Shown piece by piece: positions 8,701 to 62,929 of a stretch of DNA of 64,000 nucleotides. A program made the translations under genes and the position numbers. The stretch lies in the NCBI GenBank assembly GCA_008632985.1, contig QPGO01000010.1, forward strand, positions 310,001-374,000, in the 5' to 3' direction. The first letter of the stretch is position 1. Every line of letters begins with the position of its first letter. The DNA comes from Psammoneis japonica. Lineage: Eukaryota. Below the pieces are notes generated by a model. The model was given only the letters and a program-made list of their open reading frames with translations, searched no databases and was not told the origin of the DNA.

Positions 8701-9507
8701 CAGATTTGTGCTGGAGTGGCATTCCCTCATTTGTCACATGTTGTGGCTTGGTCAAAGTGCAGGAGCTTTGCTCTGAACTTGTGCCAATTGTGCAAGCTTT
8801 CTTGTTTGCAGCTTCTTTGTTGGTTGCTGGAATCTGTGAATGAGACAGAGAGGGTCGTGGGTCATCTGTCCACGGCCCAAATTCCCGTGTGTCTGTTCTT
8901 CCATCAACGGAATTCTCGTTGAAATTCTTTTCATGCCACGTCAACACAGAAACTCAAGTCCATTGCTTTGAGGATCACAGGCATTTCATGGATGTTGGGC
9001 CAACCACAGATTGGTTCAGCAGCACTTGGATGATTGTTGAGAATGTGGTCAGCCCCGAAACTTGCACTGGTCTCTGGCACAAGTGTGCGGGTGACCACTG
9101 AAGTTGTGCACTCCGCAGATTCAGTTTTGTGCAGCTTCCAATCTGGTCACCAGTGGTTTTGTGAAAGACTTTTGACTGGACTCTTGTCACCACTTCTCAG
9201 TGGGTGCTGTCCACTTGTGCTCTGTCTGAGGCATTGGCTTGCCGCGTTCTTCACACTGGCAATTGGTGAATTTCATGCTTAAAGTGCAGTTGGCTGTGCT
9301 GCACATCATGAAAAAGACAAGCATCAAAGGCTTCACCAAACAAATGGTGCTGTTGCAAACTCTCAATTGTGCATGCAACGCCTTTTGGTGATGGCATTTC
9401 CATGATCTAAAGTGGCTGTTTGCTGGTGACCACTTCTGCTGTTGGTTTTTTCTGAACTGCAATGCATGACCAACCAAAAGGTGACACTGCTGTGTTCCTG
9501 CTGCCAG

Positions 9508-10557: not shown

Positions 10558-10976
10558 TCAAGTTGCCAATTGCAGCTGCTTTGGCATCCGCAGTTGCAGC
10601 ATGTGACACTCCTTTGATGGCAGAGCAGCCCACAATGCAAGCTCCGTGGTCGCCCACTGTCATGGAGCTCGGGGGTGCATTGACTTCTTCTTCCTCTTTT
10701 TCTTCATCAGAGTCACAAAGAAGCTGCTGCCACCCATTGTTGCCAGAAGATTCATTGTCCATGTTTGTGTTCTGAAACTGAGATGAAACTGATTTGAAGC
10801 AGATTGTGTCAACAACAACCATGATCATGCAAGAAAACAACAAAGAGAGTCATTCTCTCACACCTGTGGCTCAATTGCGTTTTCTTGCGGGACTTTCTCC
10901 ATGCAAGGAGGCCATTTCATTGGATTTGTTTGCAGCTTGCAACAATCCAGAGGCAACACTGCACACTTGTGTCACT

Positions 10977-12166
10977 GAGTCGACAGTGTTGTCAGATTGC
11001 TTGCAGCCAGAACTGCCATCCTCTTGTTCCACAGTTTTGTCTGACACAGTGCATGGAGGAAAGATGGTGACAGCATTGAAGCATCCAAATGATGATGAGC
11101 CAAAACATTTTGGTCCACAAGGCTTTGTCCAGTTTCGGTGGACTCCACCAGAGCAGAGCCTGACCTTCTCCAAGAGGGAATGTCAGTTTCAGGACTTCGA
11201 TGGCATTGGTGGCCGGCACTCCTTCTGGCAAAAGAACATTTGATTGACAACAAAATGAAATCAATGAGAGTGAGTTTTGCGTCAAGACAAAATTTGAAAA
11301 TGCAAGATGCGAGTGATCCAACCCATTGACTCGCCTGGAACATTGGAGGCAGCATCTCCAAACAAACCGCTCTCTTCAGGAGTTTCACTTGCAGCTGACA
11401 TTGAACGTTCACTGGCTGCCAAGGTGTTTTCATTGGTGACAGGTTTTGTTTTTGCGGAAGGATTGCCCAAGGCAATTCAAGGTGAAGCGTGGCCAACTGC
11501 AGAGTCGTTCGTGGTCCCAGCAACAGCTCCCATTTCCTGTGGCAGTTCTGCTTCCCCGGTCTTGTCATCGGGCTTGTCCAAGGCAATGACAGGCAAAGTT
11601 GTCCCAACTGCAGAGTGACCATGGCTTGGACAGTGCTCTCCTTCTCCTTGCATGCAAGAGCACTCAAGAAGCCGTTGCCATCTGCAGAGTCGACAGCATT
11701 GTCGGAAGGCTTGCACCAACCGGAGCTGCCATCTTCTTGTTCCACTGTTTTGTGTGACAGTGCATGGAGGAAAGACCACGACAGTGGCGAAGCATCCAAA
11801 TGATGACAAGTTGAAACATTTTGGTCTGCAAGGCTTTGTCCAGTTTTGGCAGACTCCACTGGAGCAGAACCTTCACCAAGAGGGACAGACTCTTGGGCTT
11901 TCTTGGGATCGATGGCATTGGTGGTGACCGACACTCCTTCTGGTGAAAGGACAGCTGATTTTTAAAAAATGAAATCAATGAGAACAAGTTTTGTGTCAAT
12001 GACAAACAAAATGCAAACAAATCAAGCCAACAACTTGCTTGGAACATTTGCGACAGCATTCACTGACAAGCCACTTTTTCCGGAAGTCATGTTTGCAGCT
12101 AACATGGAACATGTGATGGCGGCCAAGGTGTTTTCATTGGCGGCAGACTTCGTTTTTGTGGAAGGA
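10977..12166. repeat. Direct duplication of about 480 bp (10977-11463 and 11687-12166)
   Basis: Both copies start gagtcgacag and share gtgcatggaggaaaga, gaagcatccaaatgatga, caaggctttgtccagttt, aaaatgaaatcaatgaga and gccaaggtgttttcattgg. Confidence 0.85.
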
Positions 12167-15100: not shown

Positions 15101-15943
15101 CCTTGCTTGTGTCTGCACGTTGCACAGAAGGAAACTGAATTTGCCATTTTTGGACACGCCCCCCCACTGACATTGTTGCCAAGGTGGTTCTCCGGGTGGG
15201 TGCTTCATGCTTGCCATGCTCTCGACAGTTGATGGGGTGCTGTGGCCAACTCTTTTGGTTGGTGCCCACTTTGGTTCTTTCACTTGTTGTTGGAGACCCT
15301 TGCAGACACCAATTTGTCCTTTGTCTGTCTTCCTCTTTCCTTTTCCTGTTGGGCATTTTTTTCCAAGAAACCAGGGCTCTGCCAGATTGCTCATCAGGGG
15401 AGTCGAGAGTGGCGGCTGTCTGGTTGTTGGGTGTTGTGTTGGGTGTGTTGGACACACACAACCAGATGGACAGACCCAGCACATGCAGACAGCACATGCC
15501 TCCCCTCACTTTTCCTTCATCACCAGCAGTGCCGCACTTGTTGTTGTCGATGCTGCTGTCCCAGCATTTTTTGTTGGGCTGCCCAGACATCTGGTCATGT
15601 CCTGGCACATCTCTGTTTTCCACTTAACTCTGCCACACTGCTGTCTGCTTTTCATCATCATCTTGCCAAAAGGTGGTCAGAGGCTTTTGGTGTCTTTTTG
15701 GGCAGCTCAGCACGTTTCTCTCATCAGCAAGGGGGGGGGCTGTTGTTGGCTCTGCGGTTTTGTGGCACACAAGCTGCCAGCTGCGAATGGTCTTTCTCTT
15801 TTCACCACTTCATTGGCTCACCACAGGAAAAAGCTGACAACATGGGGCAGATGATCACTCGCTTTTCACTTTTGCACAGAAATGCTGGTGTTGTGGACTG
15901 CATGCACTCACATTGACGGGAAGGCAGGCTCTGCAATTCGCCA

Positions 15944-25679: not shown

Positions 25680-27800
25680 GTGGTCGTGCTGCTCTGCTCT
25701 GTCTGCTGGCACCACAGGGCCCCAGGTGAGAGCGGAGTTTGGCTGCATTGCTTGCTTGTCCACTCTACAGCACTGTCACAGAGTCCTCCAGCAGCACCAG
25801 CAAGGAGGCAGGTGACACCGGCCACCCAGAAAGAAAACACCAGCTTGGGCAAAGCCGTGCACCACGAGTCGTCGAGCATTCGGGGGTCAGCAAGGCACCT
25901 CATTTCTCAAGCCAAGAGAAAGATGTCACTTGCAGACATTGGTGGAGACTGTCTTCTGAAGACATTTAGATGAAGTTGCAAGCTTGAAGCACAGCCACAT
26001 GCATGGCTCCTCTTCTTGCCCTGCTGGTGGCTAAGAGGTGCTGGGGCTCCAGTGTGCCCCAGCTTGGCGGGTGGGATTTTGTGCCGCTGGACTCTGGCGT
26101 TGAATTTTTTTGATTTTTTTGTGTCATTTTGTGTCATTTTGCAGTGCAGCTGTTGGGTGATCCATGCAACAATGACCAACAAGTGATTCTTAGAAGTCTG
26201 CACACACAACATGCACTTAAAAATTTTGAGAGAGAAGAGAGGAGACATTGTTGTGCTGCACAAATTTGCTCATTTGTTTGTGCGCTGATGAACACAAACA
26301 ATGCACCCCGAATTTGCAAGCAGCAGAGAGCTTGTCCACAAAATTGTTCCACATGACCCCGTGTGTCACAAGGAGCACCACCTGTGGGGAGCAGGGGAGG
26401 AGAGAGCAGCCACACCAGAGCTGCTGGCTGGCAAGTCTGGCTGGAGTTAGCAGCTCCTTTGCAGCGTGTCAAATCACTGCCATTTTTGTTGTGGCGTGGA
26501 TTTGTGCTAGAGCAACAAAAAAAATTGACAGCCCAACACTGTCAAAGCTGTGCACACACAGCAGGAGTGGCCTCGACACACACCACCAAAGTGAGCGCCA
26601 AAACAGAAATGTGCAACGAAGCCAGCACATGATCATCTGTCAAGCAAAATCCAGCAGGAGGGAGCAGCAGGTGGCTTGCAGACACCCTTGCCCAATGCAC
26701 AGCAATTCTCACCCAGGCCGCACTCCTGAGTGCAGCACAAAGTTCAAGGAAAGCCTCCTCAAGCAAGCTTTGTGCCTTTGGGAGAACTCATGAGTTTCTG
26801 CGTTAAAGTGAGATCATTTTGGCCAGTCCTGGGAAACTTTGCAGTTTGCACACCAACAGCAAAAGGCAGTGAGCTTCTCTTTGTTGTGAGCATGAAATCA
26901 TCTTGGGGGCATTGGGGAGGGCTCAGAAGAAAGCAAAAACATGGCTCAAGTTTTTGCCACAAATTTTGGTGCCTTTTGCCCACTTTCAAGGCTCTTCTAT
27001 GAGCAAACCCAGTGCAGGGCTAAACTCCAACCAATGGAGCTTGAGGAAAGCAATGTGAGAGTGTGCACCCTTTGCCTTGCAAGTGCCAATGTTGGACTCA
27101 ACAAGTTGAAAAGTTGTCAGTGTGCTGTTCCTCCACAGCTGTGTGGGCGCCAAGCAACTCACATTGAAGCTGGGAGTCTGTGCTGCAGCTCATGACATGA
27201 CAAATGGCACCACATGTGAGAGTTGTGACCCCTTCAAATCAACTTCACAACTCACCTTCAACTTCACCTCAGTCAGAGTGCCATTGTTTTCTTTTTTCAT
27301 CCAGTTTTTTGCTCCTTGAGAGTTTTGACAAGGCTTTTGGCAGCTTCATGTGCAGCTTTCTTGGCATCACAACCACACAGATGCTGGCTTTGTTCCACCA
27401 CTTGACATTGTGCTCATTTAGTTTGTGAAACATTGTCTTGGCAGATGTCACAAAGATGCTGCTTGTGTGGGGGCATCAGCAGGCAGGTTCTTTCAGCAAA
27501 TCAGAGCAGCTGCAGCTGAGATGCTTTTGCAACTTGTCACAGAGCTGGTCTTCCACAAGCAACTTTTTCCTTCCTAAAAAGCTCAAGTTGTTCTTGGTTG
27601 TCTCCACCCTTCAACCATGATTGTGATGCCCTTGCAGTTGGCGGCTTCAACAAACAATGCTCCTCAGCATTCACCGTCTTCTTCAGAAGCACTCAGTGCA
27701 GCTGTGTGTCCAACTGCACTTGCTCTTCCTCAGCTGGAGGAGAGCTCTAAAAGTCAAATGAAGCCAACCCTTTTTGGTGGGCTTTTGTTGCCATCAGCAA
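25680..27800. other. TpA- and CpG-depleted block B (unclassified decayed TE)
   Basis: Same composition as block A, sitting between two normal genes. Most residual TpA are in TTAG/CTAA/TTAA/CTAG. No domain or terminal repeat recognised. Confidence 0.8.
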
Positions 27801-28272
27801 CGGGCTACTACAGTGGGCCCTGCAGCTGCCAGCAGCTGACAACTGGCCAAGAGAGCACTCAAGCAATTTTGTCGGGATGGTTCTTCGTGCACAGCAAACA
27901 GAAGGACACGCTGCTTGTCGTTCGACAGTTGCTGGTATTTTCGAGGTCATATTGAACATCTTTAGAGACTAGCTGCGCATAATATTTCTAGCTGAGAGTG
28001 GAGATTCGGTCACGTTGCGTGATTGTCCGCTCTACGTTAGGGCAAACAGGCTAGAAAGTTTTTGCGTTGCGACGGTTTTTCGTTCGTGCATCGCGCGGCT
28101 ACAAGACATAAATTGGTGTCATACAGTTCAACTGTCTTTTGCTCTTTGGTTTTCAAGAGGTCTTACACCGCATTTCAATCAACACATTTTTTTATTGAAA
28201 AGCAACAACAAAGTGAACCCGTCAACATTAATGTAATGGTAGTATGAAAACCCTCACTCTCTACAGTTGCAT

Positions 28273-41429: not shown

Positions 41430-42083
41430 ACCTGGTATGGTAATTACTGTACTGTACTTCTGGCCGTGGAAAGACCCGTCCTAGCCGGAACTTGTCGAGA
41501 GCCTACCAGATCCTTGCTCAGCTTACTCCAGCAAGCTCTCATTTTCTGCATCAGCCGAGGAGGCCTGAGGTGGATGCGGCTTTTCGACTCGGGGGTTGCT
41601 GATGCTGCTTCTGGCGTAAAATCAAACGTGTAGTTGCAAATCGCGGTAACCACTTGTGCGCTCGCAATAATAATCATATCGTGTAGTGGTGGTGAGCGGA
41701 CCGCCGAGCCAGAAATGATCCACCATAGAGCTGAAAATGATTGAAGCCGTGTGGCCAATGCCTTGAGTATCGAATCACCGTGTTTAATAGACAGAGCCAC
41801 CAAGAGCCCACCCGCTGCGCCCAAGATGGCCAAGATCCATGTCACCAAGGTCCAACCGCCACCATACTAACCCAAAACCCATTCTCTCCACCACCCTCGT
41901 GAAACATGATCGAGAGATAAACTGGAAAGCTCCACAAGGCTCATTGAAAATTCCGTTACAATAATCCAATTGTTCGCCACTGGCTTCTATCAGCTTTTCA
42001 AAATCAATTGATGCAAATCCGCTCAGCGTGACTTCGACTAGCACTGCCACTGTGCCCAGCATTTGATTGTTGCCGTCCAATGG
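41430..42083 (-). pseudogene. Partial, frameshifted duplicate of the 3' half of the nucleotide-sugar transporter at 61724-62929
   Basis: Colinear with 61680-62300 (EVTLSGFASI, LGAAGGLLVALSIKHGDSILKALAT), with stops and indels and no 5' half. Confidence 0.85.
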
Positions 42084-42089
42084 TCATTG

Positions 42090-44965
42090 GAGCATCGTCC
42101 TAACACATGGCTCTTTCTTCTTGATCAATCCAAAATGACCCTGACCCTTTCGATATCCTCCAGAGCCAAGACACCCATGGTAACGCCTTGAGCCGCAGCA
42201 ATGATATGCGTCACTGTTACTGGTTCTCTCTCTTTTTTTTCTGGTCCGAGTTCTTCGTAATTTCGTGGATACCGAAACCGAAGTGAGTGCCGGAGTGCTA
42301 ATAGAATGGTGTGGCAAGTCGGTGACTTAGAGGAAGAAGGCTCTTGTAGGGGTGGACCTCAATAAAACCCCGACAAAAAGTCGGAAGGCAGAGAAACATG
42401 GACTCGCGCAGCCTTTCACGGGTGTTTTTGACGGTTACCGTGAAGTGTGTTTGCCAGGCTCGTCTTGCCTCATATTGGCTGCACTTTGCATTTTTCTCTG
42501 GATAATCATTGCTCAAAGCGACTTTGAATGTGACATGGCGAAGGTACGGTATGTTCCAATGTTTTCTTGCATAAGAGGTATTGCCACAATCAGTAGCTCT
42601 TCAATCTAAAACAACGAGTCCAGTGCGAGCAATGCCGGGAATCTCAATTGGACGATTGTCTTCTCAAGCAAAAAGATGCAAATCTGATCAACTTTGTCAT
42701 CTATCACCGGCTTCGAACGAAAATCTTGACGGTTTATCTCCAAGTTACTTTTGCAAAACGCGGCTCTCATGGTGTTTTTCAAAATCTCCATAGAGAAATC
42801 AAGTCGAGTCGTCCCGTCATGCTGAATGCGGGATCATCTCCGTATTTCCGCGTACACATGAAAGCCGCACCGTCCACGGCTCGCTTGACAATTCATACGG
42901 ACTGGTACAGCAACAGATAATTCCAACACGTCCTCCACAGGTTGTTGTTGCAGCGCCAGATCCAGTATGGTTTTTGTCATCGTTGCTGTACCGTCACCGG
43001 TAGTAAACTTCCCATTTCGTGGAGGGACGTACAAGACAAGGCAAACAATAGTGGAGCCTGCTGATCCACGAAAATGTCACTGTCACGCTCCAAGAAGGGA
43101 TAGGTAAACGGAGTCCTTGACGTAGGATACGGGTGGCTGTGAAAGAGCAGATTATGGAAAAAGGTGGACATGGTGGCAGGCAAGAGCGGAACACTCTCCT
43201 CGACCCACTCGCCAAATACTGACTGTCCCTTACGATTCCAAATCCAACAACTCTCCCGTCAGCTCCTCCACCACTTTTCCATCGACGGTGCTTCCCAATA
43301 AAGCCTCTTGATAAGAGGCCCCAGCGCGTGTCGGTCGGAATCGATTCTTGCAGAAAACAATCCAATCCTTCACGAGTTCTCTACTGAAATCCGGCGTCAC
43401 CAAGACATGCGACGCTACAGCAAAACGAGAACACAGATTGACCAAGATTTGATCAAAAGAACCATCCAGTATGGCATTTTCCCTTTTCAAGTCTAATGAC
43501 TTGACGATTCATGTAGCTTAGTCCCTCAATACTCTCGCGGCATGAAAGACAATCATGCCGTCAAATTCACATGTGTGAGCCTTGAAATAGATTGACCAGC
43601 ATCTAACGACACTGCTCATCCTTGTACGAATTGAGTACACGCTTGACAAAGGGATGACTCATCTTTTGCATACACCCCCTTTACTTGTTTGAATTGCAAT
43701 ATCATGCTTGTATTGGACCTTGAGGACATTTGCCGTTTTGCCCACTCGTTGGCTATTATTATTTGGCGTGGAACCTTTCATCATTGCATAGTTGACCAGT
43801 AATTTTAACAGCTGGGTTGTCACTCCCACAAACTAGTCACATTTGTCCAAAGGTATCAGCTCCGAGTAGTTTGAGCATTTCAAAGGAATCGAGTTGAATG
43901 GAGTATTCCGGTTTGGTGGGTGCCTCGTCCACAATGACCCTTTCAATGTCCTCAAGAATCAAGACACCCGTGATAACGTCTTGAGCCGCAGCAATGTTAT
44001 GCGTCGCTGTTGTTCTCCTTTTTTCATAATTTCTGGCACGAGTTCTTCGTTCTTCGTGTCTAAACATGGTGTTTGGTCCGAAAATCTTGGTCGTTATTCC
44101 ACCTAAATTCGTGGATGCCAAAACTGTTCCCGAAATGGCAATGTAGATCGTTGCCAAGTGGACGCAAAAGCAAAAGCACTTTTTTCTCCATGTACTCTGG
44201 AAAACAAGTAACAACAGACCGCGATATCCCTCCTGCTCACAGCTCCAACTTGTCATAAGCTCAGTCATTTTTTTCTGAGCGTACGCTTTTGTTAAACTTG
44301 GCAAGGACCTTTGTTTGTGGGCGAATCCTTCTTGCGAAACAAAGATCGGATCTTGTGCCATCTTCATAAACCGACAAGTGCTCTTTTGCGAAGAAGTCCC
44401 GGCCTCTACAAAAATTTTGTGTTCCGACACATTTTCTCGATACGAGACAGCCACACGAGCCTCGAGATCCTTCAAACCTGCAGCCACTCCATATGAGAGT
44501 TGGTCTAGTACTACTTTGGGCAGCATAACCTGCGACTGGCTGCTTGAAATCATGTTGTATAGGTCTCAAACACCATTTGTTGGTAGGCGGGTCATCTATT
44601 TTCCTTTGCGAGTGTCTATCTGGTTGAATCTTCCATTGATTTTGTTGACATACGGTCTTCCTATGGACAAGTATTCAGACTCCATTCGGTCTCCCAAATC
44701 CACGTACAGTGACAGAGAGGAAAACGGCTCTTGTAGGGGTGAACCGCAATAAAAGGCCAGTGAATTCGGGAAGACAGCGAAACATGGCGAATGGATGGAA
44801 TTGGAATATGTTTGACTCGTGCAGCCTTCAACGAGTGATTTTGACGGTTACCGTGAAGCTTGATGTATACTTGCGGAATCGTCTTGCCTCGTGTTGGCTG
44901 TTTCTCGCTCTGGATAATCACTGCTCAAAGCGACTTTCAATCTGCCATGGCGCTACAGTACGGTA
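42090..44965 (-). repeat. Two decayed paralogous segments: 42090-42550 is an internally deleted copy of about 43930-44965
   Basis: Shared: ttgagccgcagcaatg, ggctcttgtaggggtg, ttttgacggttaccgtgaag and ctctggataatcaYtgctcaaagcgactt. The longer copy holds ORF 43837-44553 of unknown family. Confidence 0.7.
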
Positions 44966-49624: not shown

Positions 49625-52262
49625 GCTTTTGCGGCAATGCTGTAAGCAGCAGTTGTTTTGTTTGTTGACGTGGTGCGATGATTTGTGATTGTGTTCATTT
49701 CCATCTTCATTCACATCATTCGCTATTCTGGAATTCAGTGTTCAGCGTCTTGCGGTCTGTCGTCGACATGATGTTTTGGACTATTTATTTCAGTGCTGAT
49801 CACCTGCATGTTGTGCCATGGATTCGTCGTCGTCGTGTTTGCTTGTTGTTGGGGAGTTACAAGTGTTCTGCCAAACTGACGGAGTAACAGAAGAATGTCC
49901 ACGACAAGCCACATGGGGTTTAATTGAGCCATCTCAGTGCTAAAGTGGCCAGCTGCAATGCTCTCTGGCAGAGAGAAACAGAAGATTCGCAATTCTTGAG
50001 TTTGTCTTTCTGACGGCACCAAGCTCTGTCCACCCACCTTTTGAGGTGAAGAATCACCTGGCTGGATGAAAATGATGTTGAACACCTTCTTCAGCTGAGC
50101 AACAAGTCTCCTGTCAGAGTTCTTGGGCTTGTCTTGAAGTTGGCCTTGAGCACGTGGGTTGGCGCACCAGTCAGGATCAAGAAGCAGACGAAGCTGTGAT
50201 GGTGGCAAGGCAAGCCCAGTGGAAAACCGCAATGGGATTTTCTTCACTGGCCACAGATGATTCCTTGTGAGTGGCCTCTTGCTCCCAGTCATTGCTCTCC
50301 ATGGAGGTTGCTTTTCCAACATGCAGTCCTCCCAAGGCTGGGATGCAGCACAGCAGAGCACAAATCCACACACAGTGTTGGGAGACAACAAAAATCACTG
50401 CAGAAAAACATTTGCCTGCCTTCAACAAAAAGCTGTCTTGGAGGGTGCATCTTGTCTAAAAGGACGAGAGAAACACAGCTGCAAATGAGGCTGTTGCACA
50501 TTGTTTGCAATCAAATTGCACAGAATTGACATGACAAAAGTGCCAAGAAGTCTTGACTCATCAGAGGAATGGTGCAAAAGAGCTGTCATCTTAGTCAATG
50601 ATGGCTTGGATTGCAATCATCCACATGGAAAAAACAGTTGATGTGGTTTAGAACATGTGACGACTGCTGTGGAGGTTTGCTGTTTTGGGAACTCAAAGAA
50701 AATTTGGTGAGAACATCTTGGGCACAAAATTGCATGGAGGATGAAATGCACACAGCCATTGGAGATGAGAGCAACAAGAAGAATCACCATGAAATGTTGA
50801 AGGCACAACAGAGCACCCCCCCTCCAACACCTGTGGCATCTCAGTCATGGCACAACTGCCTGACAAATGTTCCAAACAAGTGTCCCAGGAGGTCAGCACA
50901 ACACCAAACTCCAGTGTGGGGCAGTCCTGTGGGGTGCAGAAAAGCAAATGCAGCCAAAACAGCTGGACCAGCACAACTGACAATGAGCTCAACATGCAGG
51001 AGTGACTGTCAACAGCTTGCCATTCCTGGTGTTCTAGCCATGACCTTTTCTCCAGTCCATTTCCAATGACCTTGATGCCAAACACTCCCTTGATTTTTTT
51101 GGGATGATTGCAGTGAGAGTTGACCCTCATTCTCTGCTTGGTGGTCATGGCATTGGCAAGCCTCAGATTTTAGCAACAAGCAGACCTTCCAGGGCACAAT
51201 GCATGGCATTGTTGCCCTCCCACTGCCAGCAGCTCATTGAAAAAGGACAAGCACCATCTGCTGCAGTCGTGCAGATGTCTTAGAATGAAAACAGTGCAAG
51301 TTAGAGAGTTGCCAACAAGAAAGGCAAGCAGAGCCATTGAGCAGCTGAGGCAGTGCAGAGCTGGTTTCTCTTGAGTTCTTTGACTGTTCAGGGCACTCCC
51401 GTGCTTTGTGACAAACACATTTCAACTTGTGGGATTGTCTTTTGCCATCAACATGATTGTCTCTCACTGTCACAACAACTGCCACAAAGTGTGGAATGCA
51501 CCATTTTTGATTGGCTTGAGGTCACTTCTTGTTGATCTGTCAACTCAAGCAAACAGCTGCAAACAAGCACCACTGTGCTTCATCCAAAACAGATGTGTGC
51601 AAGCTTGAGCTCAGTTGCTGCACCGATGAAAATGCTGAGCTCATCCTGGAAGGTTGCACTCATGGAAAATCAATGATCTTCAGGCTGTTGCAAAGTTTGC
51701 CGGCAATGCAACCTGCCAAACAAGTTCACCACAGCACCAACAAGAGTGGAGTCAAATCCACTTGCTGGAAGTGATGGGCTGTCATTGTGCAGAAAAGTCC
51801 AATGAAGGGACTGTGCAAGAAACTGCCAATTGCACAAATTGTCTTCAGCAGCAGGAATGTGAAAACAAGATCCAAAGAAACAGATGAGAGGAGACATGGA
51901 AGAAGAAAAAGCCCGCAGTGCCAGAGTGCATGAAAAGCTTTCTGGAAAAAGTGCCCAAAAGTTTTTCTGACCTGGACAAGAATGAGACCATGACAAGTCT
52001 CTGGCACCCTCCTCCCCGAGAAGAAGATGCACTTGAGGTGGTTTCTCAAGACAATGCAAAAGTCTGCTTTGCTCACAAGGAATCATGGTCACAGTCATGA
52101 GAGAGTGGCTGTGTTGATGGCTGTGACAAACCTCAAAGTGTTTGTCCTTGTTTGTTTCCAAGTGGCTGAAGATTTTGCTCATGTGCACACTCACTTTAGA
52201 AGTCAATCATTTGTCCATTTGGGGAGAGCCAATGCTGGCATGTGGTTTGTTGAAGTTTGCGG

Positions 52263-52538
52263 TGATAGAAATTGAAGGCAAATGGCAAGAATTCAAACAA
52301 CAACTCCTCACTGCTGTCTAAACAGCAGATGAGTCTCCGCTCAGAGACCGTCACAGGAGCCGAAAGACATGCAAGTCGGCACAATTGGGCTGCTGTTGTC
52401 ATTCTTGTGAGCCTTGTGGCTCGAAAGCAAACTACATCGCGCGTGAACGCGCGGAACTAAAGCACACAAAACTGTGCGCGGCAAACTAAACAGCGCGCGA
52501 TGCTTCGCGCGCATCCAAATCCTGTTCAAATCCTGTCA
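52263..52538 (-). repeat. 3' LTR of the copia element
   Basis: tgatagaaattgaagg...tcaaatcctgtca; aligns without gaps to 58921-59196. Confidence 0.95.
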
Positions 52539-52539
52539 C

Positions 52540-55500
52540 TCCCCAGTTTGCTTGAGGAGCCACAGAAACAGATTCGACTTCGGATGGAATGAAGTTCCAG
52601 AACATGAGGGGTCGGAGAAGGTCCCAGATTTGGGAGTGACCCCAATGCTTGCTGAGAATGTCAGCAGGGTTGCGGGAGCCTTCAATGAAGTGGAGCTCAA
52701 GGCAACCAGAGGCAATTGCCTCACGCACACGGTGGAACGACAGTGCGGTGTGTCGCTTGTGTAACTTGGAGTGCGGGATGGTGGCACTGTCTACAACCGA
52801 CTTGTTGTCACCGAACATGCAACTGACATTGCGGATCGGGACGCCAAGGTGGCGCAGGGTGATGCGCAGGTCGACAATCTGCTCAACACAATTCCTTGCG
52901 GCAACAAATTCAGATCCGCAGGTTGCAGTCTCCACGGTGGCTTGTTTCTTGGAGAACCAATCAGCCGGGAATTTGTTGAGGAAGTGGAGCATTCCCATGA
53001 CAGAGCGTCCGGTGAGCATGCAATGGTGCAAGTTTGCATCGACGTGGTGGGTGGCAGTGACAAACTTGCCAAGGGGCGGTGGAGCGTCCTTCGGGATCAT
53101 CTCTTCTGCTTCACCACACACGGAATGCATCCATTCGCAGGCCGGAGCAGGGAGATCCGAATGGTCGGGCTCTTCCGTGCGAACGCGGAGAGCACCGTGT
53201 CGCATCTTGGAGAGGCACCCACAGACGCGTTTGGCACGATCCAAGTGGCCTTGACGGGGCGCAGCTCGGAAGCTAGAGAGTGACATGACGGCCGTGGTGA
53301 TGTCAATTCGACCAAGGGACACTGCCCATTGGAGTGAACCAACAAGAGACTGGAACTTGTGAATGCCATCGGGTCCCAGCAGTTCGGAAGTGTCCAGTTC
53401 GGGGTGGTCACCCTTCTCTAGAGGTGACAGGGCGTTGGTGGTGGGTTTCTCCCCAAACAGTCGGGCGCAGCTGTCGACCATGCGCTCGATGTACTTGCGC
53501 GGAGACAGGCACAAGGTTCCGTCGGGGTCCCGGGAAAAGTCGCAACCCAGATGGAACTCAATGGGTCCCGCACCCTTGAGCTTGAACTTGCACTTTTCCG
53601 TGAGAGTGTCGACGAAAGATTGAGGGTCCTTCATGGCAATGGCGAGGTCATCCACATAAACGGCAATGTGTTCATAGTGGTCGCCGTTCCTGCGCATCCA
53701 AATGTCGGGTTCGGCGTGGCAGGGGAAGAAGCCTTCAGCTCGCAGGCAGTCGGCGAAGCGCTCGTGCCAGCGGAGACCGGAGCTGCGGAGTCCATACAGT
53801 GCCTTGTGGATGACAAGGATGTGTCCTTCGAGTTTGCCAAATTCGGGTCCAGCCACAATGTAAAGCTTCTCCTTGGTGGTGGCTTCAAGGCAGGCATTGC
53901 CAATGTCGGTGGCCCATGTCTCCAGCTCGTTGAGTTCGGCCAGGAAAATCATCAGCCGAAGGCCACGAAGGGAGACCACTCCGGAGTGGACACTGTCGAC
54001 AGGTGCGTCCGTGAGGTGCCCGTCGGCTGCGAGTCGTGCCTTGTGGCGACCGTCGTGTTTCACGTCGCACACCAGGTGCACTCGGATCTTCTTGTGTCCC
54101 GCAGGAGGAGTGGAAGACTTGAAGGGCCCGCAGTCATGGAAGACTTCGTATTCATCGAGTTGGTCCATCTCGAGATTAGTTGCGTCTCCCCACTTGCGGT
54201 TGCCGTTGCGTTCGTCCAGTGACATGGCGTGTTTGTAGTTCCGGGGAACTTCGCATCCGCACTTGCAGCGAGGTGCAGTGCGGAAGGAGCGAAGCTTGGC
54301 TTGGTTGGCCATGCGAAATAGCTTCTTTTGGCGCCTCGCGATGGTGCGGAACCGCTTCCATCCATCCGTGTCGAGGAGTCCGTTCTCTCGTGCATAGATG
54401 GCACAGGTGACGGGGTCGTCCTTGGCGATGATGGCAAGAGGCTCGGACGTGATCTCCCCACTTTCCCATTCAAGCATGATGTTGTAGCTTGAGCCTTTCC
54501 AGGTTGGGTCGTGAGGCTTCAGAGGGCCTTCGTGTGACACGATGCGTCGAAATTTCCAAACAGTGGTGTCTTCGTCTTCTTGCTCAATGTGATTCATGAT
54601 GTCATTGTGGGCAAGGACTTCCTCGTATTCGTCATTGTTGACAGAGCAGACGAACTTAGTGAGCTCGGGATTGCCGTTCACTTTCCATTCGTGGTCTTCG
54701 ACGGCCTTGACGATGCGAGCTCTGTGGCGTTGTCCGTCCTCTTGTGGCTGCATGAGGAAGGTACGTCCAATGATGTCTTGCGGATCGAAAACTGGCATCT
54801 TGGGTGTCCTGATCTCCCCATCAGGAGAATCGACGGGGTTGTCGTCATGGCGAGATTTGATGATGGGTTCAGGTGGCTCCCCATCAGGAGGATCAAGACG
54901 CAGGTTTCGAACGGCAGGATCGGGGGTGGCGGAGCGAACGTTGGACCGGCAGAGGATCTTCTGAGTCTCGTCAGATAGAATCTTGAAGGTCATCTGGTGG
55001 CCGACGTGCTCAGCAATGCCAACGAAGCGTCCACGCAACTCACGAGATTCGGACGGCCAATCGGAGTCATCGAGGTGGAAGTACACTGGTTCCCACCAGT
55101 GAAAGCGAAGCAATGGGCTGATGTCCGGGGTGGATCCAGTGAGAGTCTTGAGGGGCGTGCGCCAGTGGAGACGTGGGGACGCTGCATGGTTGAGTGTGAA
55201 GCACACGCACATGAGCGCCAGCAGCCATGTGTGGGCGGGCGAACCAAAACGGTCCATGACAGTGTTCGCCATGCGCTTCACAGTCTGGTGTTGACACTCG
55301 GCAAAGTTTTGGTGTTGCTGGTGAGGCTCACTTTGCCAGCTGGAGATGAAGAGGGCGCGTAGGATCCCGAGCACTTTGTTGCTGATCTCAACTTGAGCAC
55401 GGTCGCTAATGAGTTTGGATGGGGCACCACGTTCACGGATCTGATCCTCGAGTGTGTTGACAAACTCTTTGTCCGTCTCAGTGCCGCAGACGTCAGTGAC

Positions 55501-56330
55501 GGTAGACTCGGTGCCAACAAACAGTTGGGCGCTGGTGCAACCAGAGTCGACGGCCGGGGTGTCGGCACAAACGGTGTCAGTGGCGATGGGCTCGTTGCGA
55601 CGGTGCACATTAAGGGCGGGGTTGGGTGATTTGAAGGCCTTGCGAAGGTGTGCACCGGCGGGCATGCGGGTGTACTGCGTGGTGCAGTCAAAAGTACGAC
55701 GGACCGCATTGGCAGGTGGGAAGCCAAAGCAAGGCCGAAGAGACTCGAAGGGGGGGTCCTTGGGCTGTGCAGTGCGCTCCGGAGGTGGAACGTCATCGCC
55801 CTTGGGGTCAATCGCACGCAGATGACACTCGTGGAACACGTCGTCGTTCGGAATGAGGTGATCATCGAGGGCGGACGCGTGATCGGCAGACAAGGAAGCG
55901 GACAAGATGGTCTCGTTGACAACGACACGGTGACGGCAGTTGCCGCATTCGTCAAACAGGTTGGCAGTGGGATCGTCCTGTGGGTCAGAGATCGCGTCGC
56001 ACCACTGGTCATCGTCAGTGACAGAGTGATCGAGGACGGAAGGGTCCCATGTGTCATCACCGGTGAGGATGACGTGGGGCAGGGTGTCCCATTCGGCGTC
56101 AGTGTGGGGTCGCATGGCAACACAAGGCAGGCCAGCCTTGATGTCAATGGGGATGACATGGCCATCAGGAGTGGCGGTGCGTTGCAAGCCGTTGGGCACC
56201 TTGACAGAGCGATCGTTGACATCCTGTTTGTGCCATTTGAGCTGGCCGCAGGAATGGATGGCAGACGTCGTCGCCAGCAATGCCGCCGTTGGCCCCACGA
56301 TCGACTAGAGCGCCAGTGCGTGTGGAGCGA
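52540..56330 (-). pseudogene. pol: Copia pol (protease, integrase, RT, RNase H), inactivated mainly by missense changes
   Basis: LVDRGANGG (PR); IATDTV, LISDRAQVE and SEPHQQHQNFAE (IN); KARLAADGH, DIGNACL, KALYGLRSS and YVDD (RT); GSEFVAAR, MFGDNKSVV and NPADILSK (RH). Frameshift near 56300; 1270-codon open frame with only about 12 Tyr. Confidence 0.9.
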
Positions 56331-56599
56331 TGAGCAGAGGCAGAGCAAATGACATTGTGGTTGTCAACGCGGCGGCAAGTGCGGCCGTCAAGTTCTGTGT
56401 CATCTGCAGAAGCTGGCGGGGTAGAGGAAGCGGCGGATGGCCCCGGTCGACTGGCATTGGGGGCTTGGTTAGGAGACAACAGACGTTGCAGATCACCGGG
56501 TGGCAGTGGCTTGCGCTTGGTGAGGTGCGCCAGGACAGGATTGTCCGAAATGGCGCCCACATGTGCAGCGGAGTCACCACAGTCAGCAGGAGTCGTGTT

Positions 56600-57997
56600 G
56601 GACAAGTTGACATCACCGTCACTCCCAAGGTGTTGGTCGTGAAGGTTGGCCGTAACAGACTCATGGCAGTTGCTGGCTCACGGGTTGCAGGGAGGCGGAC
56701 GAGAGTGCTCAAGGATGATCGCCTTGGAGGAATCGGGCAACGAATCCCAGAGCCGTTGGTGGTCGGGAGGGAGACGTCTCCATTGGACACCGGCGAGGCT
56801 GGGACCACGGGTGCAGGCAGCATTGGCTTGAAGGACGTCAACGTCGCTGTCAATGTCGCAGAACACATGGTCGGACGGTTCCTCGGAGTGGACGTCGTGT
56901 GTGCATGTGGCGCGTCGGGGAGCTCGAGGTGTCGTCTTGGGTTGAAACGTGCTGTCGCACTGAGCTGCCGCGGAGAGGAGCAAGCCACAGCATTGATCGT
57001 ATGTGAGGCTCTTGCCACTCTGCGTGCGATGCTGATCAGCTTGGTTCTTGACAGCACGGAGTTCCTCGACAGGGTGCACGGCATTCTCGAGCATGATGCG
57101 CTTCTGTCCTTCAGAGAAGTGGTCGCTGGCGGGGATGAGTGCCTCGTGCTTGCGCAACTGATCTTGCCAATGAAGGATGAACCCGTGGGTCGGACCTTTC
57201 CAAGTGCCATCACCAAGACGTGCGGTGGTGAGGTGCGTGAGCAGGGTGGAGGACTCGACAGATGCATGGGTGGAGGCAAGCGCGCATTCAGACAAGGAGC
57301 GGCAGACGGTCTGTGCGTCAGAGGACCCCACATTTTCGCGAATGAGAGCCTTGCCCTTGTCGGTGAGAAGGATGCGTTCGAAGACGGCGAACATGCACTT
57401 TTGCTGTTCAGCAAAGAGCAGTTTGTCTTCGGGGCTGGTCGGTTTGTACGACGAGTCTAGAATGCACTCGACGTCTTGGGCACGGGCTTGTGCCACAAGT
57501 GAGGTGTGCCAAGTGTGCCACTGCTTGTCGGATTTGAGAGCCGTGAAAGCGGTGGGATCACGCTTGATGCCTCGCTTGAAGTCTCGCACCGGGTCGCGTG
57601 CCTTGGTCGGGTTGGTGACATGTGGAGGTGCAAGGGGTGAGCTGCCGATGGACAGAGAGGACATGCAGTGCGGGCTGAGGCGGCAGGCAAGGAACTCGTC
57701 ATGCACGAACAAAGAGGAGTCGTTGGCAACGTCAAGACCTTTGTGTGCTTTGACAATGTACAGGCCAACCAGTGCTGCTAACATGTTCTTATAACCACGG
57801 GGCAAAGGGATTACATTGGTGCCGTTGTCGCACTCAAGCGAGTCGATTTGGGACGGTGTGAACGTGAATGGTTCCTGATGCGAGTCCGTGCCGTCTTGGG
57901 CCAAAGCCAAACGAAGAGGACTCCCAGCACCTTGGGCAAGCACGGTTCCAACAACGTGCTCGAAACCATCGGTTTGTTGCTGACGAGTGAGAACCAT
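56600..57997 (-). pseudogene. gag: Copia gag
   Basis: MVLTRQQQ...DFKRGIKRDPTAFTALKSDKQWHTW...AQARAQDVECILD...MLENAVHPVEELRAVK, typical of CoDi gag. Frameshifted into the PR region near 56680. Confidence 0.85.
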
Positions 57998-58906
57998 GGT
58001 GGACAAAAGTGGTGTCAGGACAATCAACTCTGGTTGGGAAGCGAAGGTAGACTCGAAACTTGGGTGAGAATAGACTTGACTTGAAATCTTGAACTGTCTT
58101 AAAATCAGAAGTTGCCGGGCTTTGTCATCCCGTTCGTTGTCAAGTGCCAAACTTCCCACCCGGTCCGCAGAGTTGTGCCGGCACGTCCGAACCCGCAGCT
58201 GGTGGCGTTTTGGGTTGCTTGCGAGCGGAGTGGCGGGTTGTAAACCCCTGCAGGTAAGCTGACCAGAGGTGGACAAGACCCCCGAACCGTTCTTGTTTTA
58301 CATCGGTTGGATTTCCCGATCAGGCTGGCCAGTTGACGCAGGCGTCAGGCGCTGTGGACGAACGAACAAACGCGGGAAAGCACCCTCGCCCCAACGCAGG
58401 CTGCAATCACGGCTGCTTGCTCTCACAGTCGTCCTCGTGGACCTGGTGGAACTGCAGAGCACCAGCAGTCCGGGGCAGATCAGGTGCAATGGACTCGGTG
58501 TGCTTGTAGAGTGGCAGCAAAACCGCAGTCCGAAGAGTGGGTGCAGGTTCTTGGCCGTGAAGATGTGTGTGTGTGTGTGTGTCTTCAGCGACGAAGATCC
58601 TTGAACATGCAGGGTTCTTGACTGTTGACCAATGAACAGGCATGTCAAGGGATGAGGATCAAGGACAGACTTGGATGTGACCGTTGAATGTATGTCTTCA
58701 GCGATCAAAGGCAGCACAATCAAACCAGACATCCAGCGGTGAGGAGACTTGACGGTGACGTTAACTTCCTGCCGATGCCCTGGTGTTGGATGCGCGCAGA
58801 CTTGCCGATGTATGTAGAACATGTGCGGAGGTCCACGTAGAATTGAAACAGCGTCGTTGGTAAATCAACGACGACGATGGCGGTTGCTCAATGGGTTGAC
58901 AATGAG

Positions 58907-58920
58907 CAAGACTGTTAATC
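58907..58920 (-). other. Putative primer-binding site complementary to the anticodon arm of tRNA-Asn(GUU)
   Basis: The plus strand CAAGACTGTTAATC directly abuts the 5' LTR and reads as stem-CT-GTT-AA-TC. There is no canonical TGG PBS. Confidence 0.55.
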
Positions 58921-59196
58921 TGACAGAAATTGAAGGCAAATGGCAAGAATTCAAACAATGACTCCTTGCTGCTGTCTAAATGGCAGATGAGTCTCCGCTC
59001 AGAGACCGTTGCAGGAGCCGAAAGACGTGTAAGTCGGTATAATCGGGCTACTGTCATTATTCTTGTGAGCCTTGTGGCTCGAAAGCAAACTACATCGCGC
59101 GTGAACGCGCGGAACTAAAGCACACAAAACTGTGCGCGGTAAACTAAACAGCGCGCGATGCTTCGCGCGCATCCAAATCCTGTTCAAATCCTGTCA
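58921..59196 (-). repeat. 5' LTR of the copia element
   Basis: tgacagaaattgaagg...tcaaatcctgtca; 19 substitutions versus the 3' LTR by manual alignment. Confidence 0.95.
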
Positions 59197-61723
59197 TGCG
59201 GCCAGAGCCAACTCCTGTTGTTCTTGTGCATCATTTGCTGATTGGTTGCCTTTCCAGTCTTGATCCCCCACACACATGTCCAAGAGAACCATTTTGCTTG
59301 AAGTCTGCACACCAACCAGCCTCAGACCAACTGTCCAGAGATGGCATCCATGAGCACTCAAGGTGGTGACGGCAACCCTGGCAACAGCTGCAGGTTGTGG
59401 TGCAGCGCTGCTGACACCAGCCCACAACACATGGCTGGACACCAAGAGCAACAGCAATCAATCAAAACAGGGTTGTCATCGTGATGACACACCCAACACA
59501 GCCCAGAAAATTTCACAAAAAGAGAGAGAAGAGCAGCAGCTGCAAGGGTGCTGAGAAGCAACTCTTGTCATCACAGGACATGACAAGAAATCTTGCCAAT
59601 GTGACTCACATTGAAAGCCACTGGTCCTTTCAAAGAGAACAGACACAACATTTCCCTGCTCCTCTTTCTTCTTCTTCTCCTCCTCCAAGAAAGTCACCTC
59701 ATGTCCCCTGTGCTTTTGCTCATTTTTTGGGATGTCTCAAGTGTGCTTGCCTTTCCCTGTGTTTTTGGTTCTTTCCAGGGCAGCATCTCAACCATTGTGC
59801 AAAAGCTTGGGACCATCCTTGTGCTTTTGGCATGTTCACAATGGCTCTTTTGAAATGACTTGCTCAAAGCTGTCATGACCTCAGTCATCTGTGAGAACCC
59901 CATGTGCTGCAGATTCAAATCATTTCAACCAGCAACATCTCTTGCAACAAGGTTTTTTTGGCTTGCTGCAGTTGCTGGCACAAGATGTTGTGTTTTCAGG
60001 TTCCCACAAGATGTTCTTGGCTGCACCCACAATGTGCTCACCAGCTCCATGCACAAGCCATCTGGCTCAGGTTTGACATTGCCACACTGGGGACAGAGAT
60101 GCATTTTTTTCTCCCTGGTCATTCTCAGGTCTTGTTGTGGCGACCTTTGCTCCCTCTGAAAGAGCATGGGTGGTCTGTTTGGAGGTGCTCTTTGTCTTTG
60201 GTTTGTCTGTGTGCTTCCTGTCTGGGATTTTGCAGAATGACGCTGTGTCCTGTGACTTGGTGGCAGTCACAATGAGGGCCATTCTTTTTGCCTTGCTGTG
60301 TTTCTCATCTGTCTCACTGGCCATCCTCTTGGCATGTCCATGGCTGCCTCTCTGTCAAGCACAACACAGTGCATGTTGTGCTTTGTGTGGTGGCCACAGA
60401 CTTGAAGATGGATGAAGACAACATGGTTGTGCTGACTTGCTGTTGATGCCACAATCCTCCCGCATTTTTCATTTTGCCATCCAAATCAATCACAGCTGCT
60501 GACTCATCAATGGGCTCTTCTGCACTGTGGCTGATGGTGTGTTTCTTGACACAGCACTGGCCAGGTTTTTGAGCCAAGCCACCATTGCTGTCTTCATTTC
60601 TGCATGATTGGCAGCTTGTCTTGCCTTTGTTGTGGCTTGTTCTGCCACATTCATTGGATGGCCAGTTGGACAACTGTGTCTTGCTGGTGACTCTGGAAAT
60701 GCAGCAAGGCAAGCACATTGTTGGATTCCTCCAACTGCATTTTTTGTGTCTTTGTTGTCAATGTCTCCATCACAACTCTTGCTGCTTCTCATCACTTTCT
60801 GGTGCTCTGGCTGGTCACAAGCTCTGCATGTCATCTCTTGTGTTTTGCTGCATTTTTCTTTGTGACTGCCACACAATGTCTTCCAACATGGCATGTGTGC
60901 TGATGTTGCTGGGCAGGCCATGCAACATTTTTTTCATCCAGTTCGTTCTGCAGTTGATGCTGGTTTTGAATTTTTGTTCTGTGCTGTCTCCTGTGGCATG
61001 TGGGCACCTTGGGTGGCACTGCAATTGCCAAAAGCAGTGTCTTTTTTTTTCAGAAGTGCCTCCAAGCTTGGGGCACGTGAAGCAGTTGGAGGACATTTGA
61101 CACCCCGACTTGTCTGTTTTGATGTGACAGAGTCTGTGTTGCAGCAGGCTCACATTGAATTTCTTGTTCCTCTGCCAGTTCTTGCAGGAGTTGCTGAACT
61201 GGAATTTTGTTGTTTGACATTCCTCAGCTGCATTGTCACCCAACATTGACATCAAAGCATTTGCAGTTGACTTGGTCTAACATGTGCATCAACACAGCCA
61301 CCAAGTTCCGATCACTGCTTTTTGCTCTTTGTTGTTGACAACCATGGTTCATCATCAACATCATTGCATTCATCATGGCTGTCATCACTTTTTCAAGATG
61401 CAACAACTGTCACGACGCCTTTGGCAGTGATGGAAGACTTGCGGCAATTCCACCCCAAAAATAATGCAGACTACAGTGGAAACGGGACGATCTAACGACA
61501 CTTCCAGGTTCTAGGACAGCGTAATGCATGCACTCTAGAGAGACAGTGAGATCTCCGTCTTTCTATGCTAGCAATCTGTCTATCTCGCATGGAGCGTACT
61601 CCCTGAATGAAACCCACCTCAAGGAGAATTTTGCGCCATTCCATATCTCTAGTTTTTCCTCTTAACAATAATACCGGTAATAACATGGTAACTACTGTAC
61701 TTATGGCCGTGCAAAGAACCGTC

Positions 61724-62929
61724 CTAGCCGGAACTTGTGGAGTGCCTACTAGATCCTTGCTCAGCTAACTCAAGCAAGCTCTCCTTTTCTTCTTCTGCTG
61801 AGGAGGCCTGAGGTGTATGCGGCTTTTCGACCGGCGGGGTTGCTGCTTTTGGTGTAGAATCAAACGTGTAGTTGCAAATTGCTATAACCACTTGTGTGCC
61901 AGCAATAATCATAGTGGGGGTGAGCGGACCGCCTACCAGAAATGATCCAACAAAGAGCTGAAAATGATTGAACCCGTTGTGGCCAATGCCTTGAGTATCG
62001 AATCACCGTGTTTAATAGATAGAGCCACCAGGAGCCCACCCGCTGCGCCCAAGATGGCCAAGATCCATGTCACCAAGGTCCAACCGCCACCATACCCATT
62101 CTCTCCACCACCCTCGTGAAACATGAAGGAGAGGTAAACTGGAAAGCTCCACAAGGCCAACTGAAATTTCGTTCCCATATATCCAATTGTTCGCCACTGG
62201 CTTTTATCACCTTTTCAAAGTAAATTGACGCAAACCCGCTCAGCGTCACTTCGACTAGCACTGCCACTGTGCCCAGTATTTGATTGTTTCCGTCCACGGA
62301 CATCGGAGCCCCGTCCTTCCAGATGGGCTCAGAAAATAGCAAGACGCCCAGCATTAGAGCTACAAGAGCACGCCATTGAGTTGTGGTGTAGTGACGCCGC
62401 AATATTAGAGTGGAAAAGGTGGCAGTCGTCAAGATTTTGCATTGCGCAAAAATAGTAAACATTCCAGCACCAATGTTTCGCAACGAAATGTAGCTGAGAA
62501 TGTTCATGAGTCCGTACAGAATTGCCAAAACAAACATCTTTTGAGACTTCTGAGCTAAATAGTTGAGTCGACTCCATATTGAATCGCCTTGCGGTAGATT
62601 CCCCGAAATCATCCATGCGGCATACACCATTTTCATTGCTTCACCCATCAAAAGTACCTCGTGCTGGTCGAGCAGACGGGAATAAGTGTCAGCAGACATC
62701 ACATTCGTGCGGTATTTATTGACTCGACCGCCTAGAAAATAACAACAGCGCTTACCTTGGAATAGTCCTCTTTCAGAATCCCCTGACTGTACCGTCTCAG
62801 TACGGTGAACATTGAGTTTTGCAAACAGAGAATCATCAGCACCACGAGTTTGGTGCTGTTGAGACATGATGATAGCCCTCGACGATTCTTTCCATTCACA
62901 TCATCAGGTGTCGAAGGCGTTGCTGCCAT
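61724..62929 (-). pseudogene. Nucleotide-sugar transporter (SLC35A/UDP-galactose or CMP-sialic acid type) with two 1-nt deletions; exons 62929-62756 and 62663-61724
   Basis: LCLQNS...RRYS, LMGEAMK, QCKILTTATFS, LSGFASIYFEKVIK, IWERN and GGLLVA..IKHGDSILK. The frame breaks near 62165 and 61935, so this is either a pseudogene or an assembly error. Confidence 0.75.

Follow-up and report, generated by a model that had tools for sequence, protein, structure and literature searches.

Graded flank preference of TpA loss in repeat DNA of the diatom Psammoneis japonica

The DNA analysed here (the window) is a stretch of 64 000 nucleotides from contig QPGO01000010.1 of the diatom Psammoneis japonica. 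Among the best 120 matches listed for a transportin exon of the window, those with a named host come from diatoms, apart from one entry labelled Alexandrium, and the highest identity is 61%. At positions 49890–52262 it carries the left half of an old block depleted of the dinucleotides TpA and CpG (hidden Markov model limits 49943–52260), which consists of decayed multi-copy DNA with 43 matches in the genome, the others being ~67–83% identical. A direct count found exactly ten TpA in this half, at 49921, 49941, 50457, 50592, 50649, 51035, 51171, 51281, 51302 and 52197. These are the positions given in the original prediction, which regarded them as survivors of a mutator that prefers TAY and spares YTAR (Y, pyrimidine; R, purine). 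All ten are indeed YTAR: TTAA at 49921, CTAA at 49941 and 50457, CTAG at 51035 and TTAG at the other six. In the non-depleted DNA of the window YTAR accounts for 17.3% of TpA (0.173^10 = 2e-8), and YTAR-type flanks surround 24.4% of all TA, CA and TG steps within 49890–52262 (0.244^10 = 8e-7). The limits of this stretch were drawn post hoc, with non-YTAR TpA lying just beyond them at 49885 and 52265, so that the weight rests on independent replications.

The block was split in two by a young Ty1/copia retrotransposon of 6.9 kb (52263–59196, reverse strand; RVT_2 in the open reading frame, ORF, 52486–56304), which is flanked by the target-site duplication TGCGG (left copy 52258–52262, right copy 59197–59201, forward strand). 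This element, a member of what we call family A, has lost part of its TpA and has kept its CpG nearly intact. Both of its long terminal repeats (LTRs) are 276 nt long, lie on the reverse strand and are 93% identical; the 3' LTR (52263–52538) has lost six TpA relative to the 5' LTR (58921–59196), the 5' LTR has lost one relative to the 3' LTR, and at five more sites one LTR has CA where its partner has TG. As the original prediction had it, CTAA makes up three of the four TpA that neither LTR has lost, and A>G in TAY fits six of the seven one-sided changes, with the exception of TTAT>TCAT. The CTAC>CCAC changes that it listed in pol were also seen in the element family (12 CA versus 38 TG outcomes). 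The right half of the split block (59197–61412), a decayed copy of an unannotated 602-aa ORF, has a single TpA at 61278 (TCTAAC). This CTAA, correctly described as a lone survivor, is the only TpA in 59170–61412, and the sole covering relative also has TA there.

Two further depleted blocks of the window, at 375–15936 and 25688–27871, have YTAR at 25 of 34 and 11 of 15 TpA, respectively, and the share over all depleted blocks of the window is 45/58. The replication sample consisted of 20 further 10-kb stretches, chosen as adjoining the window or surrounding known depleted matches. In other depleted DNA, 162 of the 258 TpA in 79,201 bases were YTAR (expected 24.6%, p = 2e-38), as compared to 633 of 3509 in the non-depleted DNA of the sampled stretches. 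The density of TpA is 2.7–3.3 per kb in depleted blocks versus 36–43 per kb in non-depleted DNA, and in old blocks the observed/expected ratios are 0.05 for TpA, 0.27 for CpG, 1.78 for CpA and 1.76 for TpG. The depletion targets that we saw are transposons and decayed gene copies; genes are spared. Within the window, 4239–4458 is a TpA-depleted copy of the non-depleted 42562–42749, in which CTAA has been kept and ATAA, GTAT, GTAG and TTAC have changed.

Non-depleted relatives cover seven of the ten sites in the left half of the block, and they divide the supposed survivors into different kinds. In the first pair (49921–49942), TpA 49921 (TTTAAT) is in a mixed state in the relatives, and 49941 (GCTAAA) is counted as TA, with TA in five of eight covering relatives and TG in the other three. 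The next three (50457–50650), namely 50457 (TCTAAA), 50592 (CTTAGT) and 50649 (TTTAGA), are those without a covering non-depleted relative. At 51035 and 51171 the relatives mostly read CG and at 51281 they read TG (51035–51282); judging from this alignment, these three TpA were probably regained by new mutation and kept in a slow context. The covering relatives also have TA at 51302 (GTTAGA) and 52197 (TTTAGA), and these two sites (51302–52198), by the same alignment, are true survivors. Hence the word surviving holds for the three testable sites that are TA in relatives (49941, 51302 and 52197), whereas the three that are CG or TG there are probably new and one is mixed. Compared with non-depleted relatives, which are only ~70% identical, the block has kept YTAR at 3 of 11 sites and other contexts at 1 of 64 (p = 0.009), the lone other site lying beyond the block edge; its changes went in the direction predicted by the TAY rule in 21 cases and against it in six. 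Ranked by the rates in young copies described below, nine of the ten TpA fall within the slowest 17% of contexts, with 50457 and 50649 within the slowest 1.1% and 50592 at the 34th percentile.

The per-site rates come from an alignment of 61 copies of six Copia families (16, 14, 10, 12, 5 and 4 copies), with each TpA site tallied. The rate model was strand-resolved, included local exposure and covered 720 sites and 8859 site-by-copy cells; family C, which is heterogeneous with neutral divergence up to 0.34, was excluded from the final rate models and shows a similar trend in the comparison of class retention. YTAR was the best-retained class in each of the six families (0.71, 0.83, 0.65, 0.70, 0.82 and 0.70; other classes, 0.31–0.80), and in family A 136 of the 206 TpA-bearing sites show TA, CA and TG across the 16 copies. 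The rate of A>G, taken relative to A at each flanking position, was 3.28 for C, 3.33 for T and 1.14 for G at +1 (95% bootstrap intervals of ~3.0–4.2 and 2.9–4.6 for C and T, respectively). At +2 it was 2.11 for C, 1.82 for G and 1.96 for T (A at this position acts as ~0.5x), at -2 it was 0.53, 0.50 and 0.42 for C, G and T (A acts as ~2x, making ATA fast), and at -3 it was 0.62, 0.81 and 0.39. An adjacent CpG slowed the change, by 0.66x in TACG and by 0.26x in CGTA (111 sites). Hairpin stems were without effect on the rate (1.05x), and neither hairpin loops, AT content of the far flanks, A-tracts nor the number of CpG within 15 bases added anything to the model.

The gain in log-likelihood was 415 for a 3'-only model, 261 for a 5'-only model and 397 for a strand-symmetric one (nine parameters each), as compared to 674 with both flanks (18 parameters). 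The odds for direction were strong for TAC (2.9) and weak for TAT (1.3), so that only TAC is strongly directional. The flank rule is therefore made up of a strand-specific part (TAC) and of parts common to both strands, by which ATA/TAT is fast and both T-N-T-A and T-A-N-A are slow. The fastest site is A-A-T-[A]-C/T-not A and the slowest is T-Y-T-A-R-A, which is slow on both strands; YTAR dominates the residue because neither of its strands has A followed by a pyrimidine. A context-dependent TpA mutator, as originally proposed, is supported by these rates, and its preference for TAY stands insofar as no other single term is larger than that of the base 3' of the A (~3.3x with either C or T there). 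As a rule, however, TAY is incomplete, as the outer flanks matter as much and the preference is graded, with no strict motif. On the whole, the original interpretation is partly supported: largely right but too simple. The structure of TpA steps depends on the hexanucleotide context (PMC6511876), a dependence that may fit a read-out of DNA shape by the mutator. Read in frame, the fast class TAY comprises both tyrosine codons and the slow class TAR both TA stop codons; tyrosines are lost faster than stops.

The two LTRs of single insertions give the same rule. For eight copies of family B, the unmutated 3' LTR served as the starting state of the 5' LTR, which retained 25 of 42 YTAR, 0 of 19 RTAY, 5 of 24 RTAR and 9 of 22 YTAY. 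Changes of RTAR went to CA 15 times versus 4 to TG, and those of YTAY went to TG 11 times versus 2 to CA. TTTAGA (8/8), CTTAGA (5/5) and TTTACA (8/8) were untouched. Of 48 CTAA cases in the LTR pairs of family A, 45 have the site unchanged in both members of the pair.

The young-copy rates also have predictive power for the residual TpA of old blocks (99 kb; 306 TpA among 22,148 steps; area under the curve, AUC, 0.84), as opposed to an AUC of 0.43 in the genic control. In the slowest-context tenth 160 of 2240 steps are still TA, compared with 0 of 2231 in the fastest tenth. TYTARA is still TA at 64 of 490 steps (0.73 of the genic level), YTAR with one outer base (T or A) at 111 of 2246 (0.33 of that level), YTAR with none at 32 of 2782 (0.08), and non-YTAR without an outer T or A at 21 of 9560 (0.01). 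These data bear on the simplest alternative, namely that there is no flank preference at all and that YTAR is regenerated by C>T changes, was commoner ancestrally, or stems from TTAA transposon footprints or stop codons. The three sites of the block at which intact relatives have CG or TG speak for regeneration, as does the decay model with regain added, which fits slightly better and ascribes 18% of the residue to regain. On the other hand, each of the six families shows class differences in retention per ancestral site, the family A LTR pairs keep CTAA in both LTRs, and exponential decay describes the old blocks far better than a steady state (-lnL 1351 versus 1439). An ancestral excess is at odds with the under-representation of YTAR in unmutated DNA (17–18%), and only one of the ten sites is TTAA. 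Accordingly, we consider the absence of a flank preference barely credible: regeneration is refuted as the sole cause and plays a minor part, roughly one fifth of the residual TpA being new, through ordinary C>T changes, and persisting mostly in slow contexts.

The changes themselves took place after insertion. Between sister copies with 11–13 neutral differences, 58–77 TpA sites differ, and most of the differences within LTR pairs are at TpA, which shows the changes to be post-insertional and largely independent. Shared ancestry was rejected as an explanation of the class differences, as the differences at TpA sites depart from the neutral-site tree and the LTR pairs give the same rule. Editing of RNA by an ADAR-like enzyme, or errors of reverse transcription before insertion, might be suspected from the two genes with an ADAT1/ADAR fold in the genome and from the preference of ADAR for a 5' U, as cited in the preprint by Mettrop et al. 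(bioRxiv 10.64898/2026.01.13.699255). However, both strands are changed about equally, the LTRs of one insertion differ (in family B, 86 losses versus 3, see below) and the pattern is carried as well by a decayed fragment similar to the C-terminal domain of an eIF5B/IF-2 gene (50071–50452, reverse strand; tblastn E 1e-17). RNA-stage editing is refuted by the LTR pairs, and we give it next to no probability.

An intact relative of the eIF5B-like fragment lies at locus L158, where PF14578, PF00009 and PF11987 are matched. In a comparison of window positions 49886–51221 with L158:3469–6373, we saw an intact eIF5B gene and many ~70%-identical genomic fragments, some TpA-depleted and some not. A mobile element may have carried this piece of a gene.

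Mutated copies show how the change spreads. Changes cluster over 300–1000 bases within a copy, and in family B (14 copies, loci L085–L098) TpA loss runs inward from the 5' LTR to a front that differs between copies, with 86 TpA losses in 5' LTRs versus 3 in 3' LTRs. Copy L093, divided into seven bins, has lost 30/33, 42/44, 44/44, 35/36, 14/39, 0/53 and 5/41 of its TpA. In family A the LTR losses are less lopsided (28 in 5' versus 59 in 3' LTRs). Neighbouring changes lack strand coordination: in three families with 18 distance bins altogether, the proportion of pairs on the same strand matched the permutation null in 17 bins (|z| up to 1.8), with z = 2.3 in the remaining bin. The same-strand neighbours expected of APOBEC-like processive deamination of single-stranded tracts are not seen.

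Several observations concern the surroundings of these copies. Family B copy L098 is mutated inside and in neither LTR. Ten family B copies with at least two 5'-LTR losses have 59 TpA in 4000 bases upstream versus 118 in 3860 bases downstream, the LTR ends being approximate; the lower upstream value hints at spread into host DNA. Unlike in family B, all 16 family A copies (window 52263–59196 and L031–L045) sit in TpA-poor flanks, with 0–2 TpA per 186–400 bases on the 5' side, and one of the 3' flanks has 14 TpA. The TpA-poor flanks of family A may reflect either insertion bias toward silent DNA or outward spread.

The process is highly selective. Within the mutated family B zones, TpA was lost at 774 of 949 sites, as compared to 33 changes among 7804 other adenines, a ~200-fold selectivity. 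The off-target A>G changes at A followed by C rose to 21/2000 from 7/4629 in unmutated parts (p = 1e-6). A preference for 5' CA among these changes was rejected, as AA, CA and GA all rise ~3–4x within family B and the signal resides in the 3' C. C>T changes at CpG were six times higher in mutated zones (56/2553 versus 19/5513), with no rise in C>T at CpH or in transversions (5/17709 in mutated versus 19/42719 in unmutated parts). Loss of CpG and TpA in common domains could point to error-prone resynthesis by a polymerase-eta-like enzyme that, during repair of T:G mismatches from deamination of methyl-CpG, mutates nearby WA, which is its hotspot (W, A or T; PMC7884765). As in somatic hypermutation by polymerase eta, there are transitions at A:T, with TA among the hotspots (PMC7884765), but AA is almost untouched, having changed ~140-fold less often than TA (12/1947 versus 774/949), and neighbouring changes are not on the same strand. 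Furthermore, TpA events far outnumber CpG events, the rate does not depend on how many CpG lie within 15 bases, and a CpG next to the site slows the change. A WA-type polymerase is thus largely refuted and, in our view, very improbable.

What the data call for is a DNA-level, distributive, TpA-selective transition mutator that acts in patchy domains which also lose CpG. TpA is converted to TpG or CpA in repeat domains after insertion, with sites changing singly and on either of the two strands; about six surrounding bases determine the rate. As its cause we suggest, with about an even chance of being right, a DNA adenine deaminase acting in CpG-methylated silent chromatin. Such an enzyme would convert A to hypoxanthine, which would be copied as G at the next replication. 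It would meet duplex or briefly opened DNA, given that part of the flank rule acts alike on both strands, and the mutated domains would correspond to 5-methyl-CpG-marked, DNMT5-type chromatin. Diatom transposable elements are CG-methylated by DNMT5 (PMC9998398), and domains that lose CpG, as DNA marked with 5-methylcytosine would, fit methylated chromatin. Adenine deamination is favoured because editors derived from TadA work best at TAY (PMC10879117) and eukaryotic ADAT2, as described in amphioxus, can deaminate A in DNA (PMC10354150). The genome itself, with its TadA- and ADAT2-like genes, its two genes of the ADAT1/ADAR fold and its 27 matches to C5 methylases, also speaks for this reading. 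The preference for TAY over TAR typical of a TadA/ADAT2-type deaminase is found here at 3.3x for both C and T at +1. The resemblance to TadA-derived adenine base editors extends to non-TA adenines, which are also favoured by a 3' pyrimidine (NAC, in family B; PMC10879117); the both-strand terms and the lack of strand-coordinated runs set the diatom process apart from these editors. With amphioxus ADAT2/3 it shares the likeness to a natural eukaryotic tRNA deaminase able to deaminate A in DNA and differs in the motifs, which are TCG and GAA there, and in the C>U activity of that enzyme, C>T at CpH being not raised in the diatom (PMC10354150).

A number of points weigh against a deaminase of this kind. 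A>G and T>C are one base-pair change, and the sequence is blind to which base was attacked. TadA7.10 and TadA8e act on A regardless of its context (PMC10085711), as opposed to the ~200-fold TpA selectivity seen here, and amphioxus ADAT2 prefers GAA and hairpin loops (PMC10354150), whereas hairpin stems have no effect in the diatom. In family B, RTAR is kept almost like YTAR (0.80 versus 0.83) until local exposure is modelled, and the off-target NAC signal is clear only in that family, families A and D being almost without an unmutated part. Searches of the genome with four deaminase families gave no unusual deaminase. PF00383 has nine matches and PF14437 five (profile search), which by sequence look like dCMP deaminase, TadA-like, ADAT2-like, guanine-deaminase-like and RibD proteins, a housekeeping set, and there was no match to PF18785. 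PF02137 matches the two genes with the ADAT1/ADAR fold, an ADAT1-like one on contig C40 and a second one at L252:1114–2408 (G000:C79:344558–345390); the latter has relatives in centric and pennate diatoms, and PF02137 is its sole annotated domain.

Two other lesions would leave the same trace, and the sequence cannot separate either of them, a thymine-side lesion or a mark followed by conversion, from adenine deamination. In silent chromatin, the T in 5'-R-T-A (best G-T-A and A-T-A) might undergo excision or modification (oxidation to a G-pairing form is one example) and become fixed as C. The data are formally the same, since A followed by C is T after G on the opposite strand, and the both-strand part of the flank rule would suit an enzyme that flips the base out of the duplex. 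An abasic-site route tends to yield transversions, and none accompany the changes; the genome has no match to Tet/JBP (PF12851), a weak negative as the control was without a match too. We regard a thymine target as unlikely. Alternatively, the adenines of TpA could be marked first, for example by N6-methylation on both strands of the palindrome, and then deaminated or miscopied, so that the flank rule would be that of the marking enzyme. Such a sequence of steps would explain the ~200-fold dinucleotide selectivity, the duplex-wide flank terms and the interference by an adjacent CpG. In unicellular eukaryotes, however, N6-methyladenine is found at ApT in active genes, and we consider marking in two steps quite improbable.

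The closest known counterpart of the process is the TpA-restricted A:T>G:C hypermutation of integrated DNA of nucleocytoplasmic large DNA viruses (NCLDV) as well as of virophages in Bigelowiella natans (Mettrop et al., bioRxiv 10.64898/2026.01.13.699255). In both organisms TpA is changed to TpG and CpA on both strands, in silent or foreign DNA only, leaving TpA-poor clusters rich in CpA and TpG; of the features described in that preprint, the near-exclusive A:T>G:C at TpA, the TpG and CpA outcomes and the sparing of genes are all found in the diatom. An adenine deaminase (ADAT2) was proposed, as yet unproven, for B. natans. That organism is a rhizarian in which integrated viral DNA is targeted, unlike the Copia elements and decayed gene copies of the diatom, and erasure is nearly complete in the diatom (TpA observed/expected 0.05) versus 0.45 in the B. 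natans NCLDV region. The preprint describes a process that operates in some lines only and raises the per-generation rate ~1000-fold; the patchy domains that differ between diatom copies are compatible with this. A term search of its main text (the supplements with the mutation table lay outside the search) found no diatom or stramenopile and no analysis of flanks, context or trinucleotides, and, in the parts of the main text covered, CpG loss is not linked to the process. A more far-reaching proposal, that diatoms, and perhaps all of the SAR (stramenopiles, alveolates and Rhizaria), have an enzyme of genome defence that changes A directly into G in double-stranded DNA methylated at CpG, reads a six-base TpA window and spreads as a chromatin domain from the 5' end of retrotransposons, this being the same system as in B. 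natans, is tentative and in our judgement doubtful.

TpA hypermutation as such has thus already been published for B. natans. Tested on the present data were the strand-resolved six-base matrix and its prediction of survivors, as well as the lack of strand coordination and of a hairpin effect, the off-target signal at NAC, the polarity of loss in the 5' LTR and the TpA sites that were regained. Our search of the literature on TpA hypermutation, with most subscription journals outside it, found no diatom case. Only one published case of repeat-directed A:T mutation was found (the 2026 preprint), and a second lineage together with a rate matrix makes the question of the enzyme testable. Any candidate must give ~200-fold TpA selectivity, favour TAC and TAT ~3x over TAA and TAG and produce no strand-linked runs; it must also show protection by T-N-T-A-N-A and by an adjacent CpG. 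Applied to the B. natans mutation list, the matrix can be used to ask whether there is one system or two. If the far-reaching proposal above is right, the matrix would identify the enzyme in vitro. A natural A-to-G editor of duplex DNA would also be of interest to genome engineering.

Repeat-induced point mutation (RIP) of ascomycetes also causes dinucleotide-specific transitions that wreck repeats and spare genes, and it does so by C>T at CpA, which makes TpA. The diatom process runs in the opposite direction (TpA observed/expected 0.05, CpA 1.78, C>T at CpH not raised). RIP hits both partners of a repeat, whereas identical family B LTRs are treated unequally (86 versus 3), which argues against pure homology pairing. 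RIP also depends on a methyltransferase of the RID/DNMT4 type, for which the 27 PF00145 matches noted below would be the candidates. RIP was rejected as the process, as neither its CpA>TpA direction nor its dependence on homology is seen here. For genome annotation, loss of TpA is a mark of silenced DNA in diatoms and a means of dating it, and the standard indices of RIP give the reverse reading.

A few observations complete the picture. Among 80 related Copia loci from metagenomes, none had a 600-base window with TpA observed/expected below 0.15 (lowest, 0.22), a weak negative because assemblies may merge copies. C5 DNA methylases (PF00145) have 27 matches on 13 contigs of the P. japonica genome, several with stops (including L146–L157); our impression is that this number exceeds what would be expected for housekeeping in a diatom. 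At L080:313–1785 (reverse strand) a zinc-deaminase domain is fused to a 2OG-Fe(II) oxygenase, a protein that is probably metabolic. Finally, window positions 41450–42110 and 61693–62326 are 86%-identical paralogues that overlap a nucleotide-sugar transporter ORF. Neither is TpA-depleted, so that duplication alone is no trigger for TpA loss.

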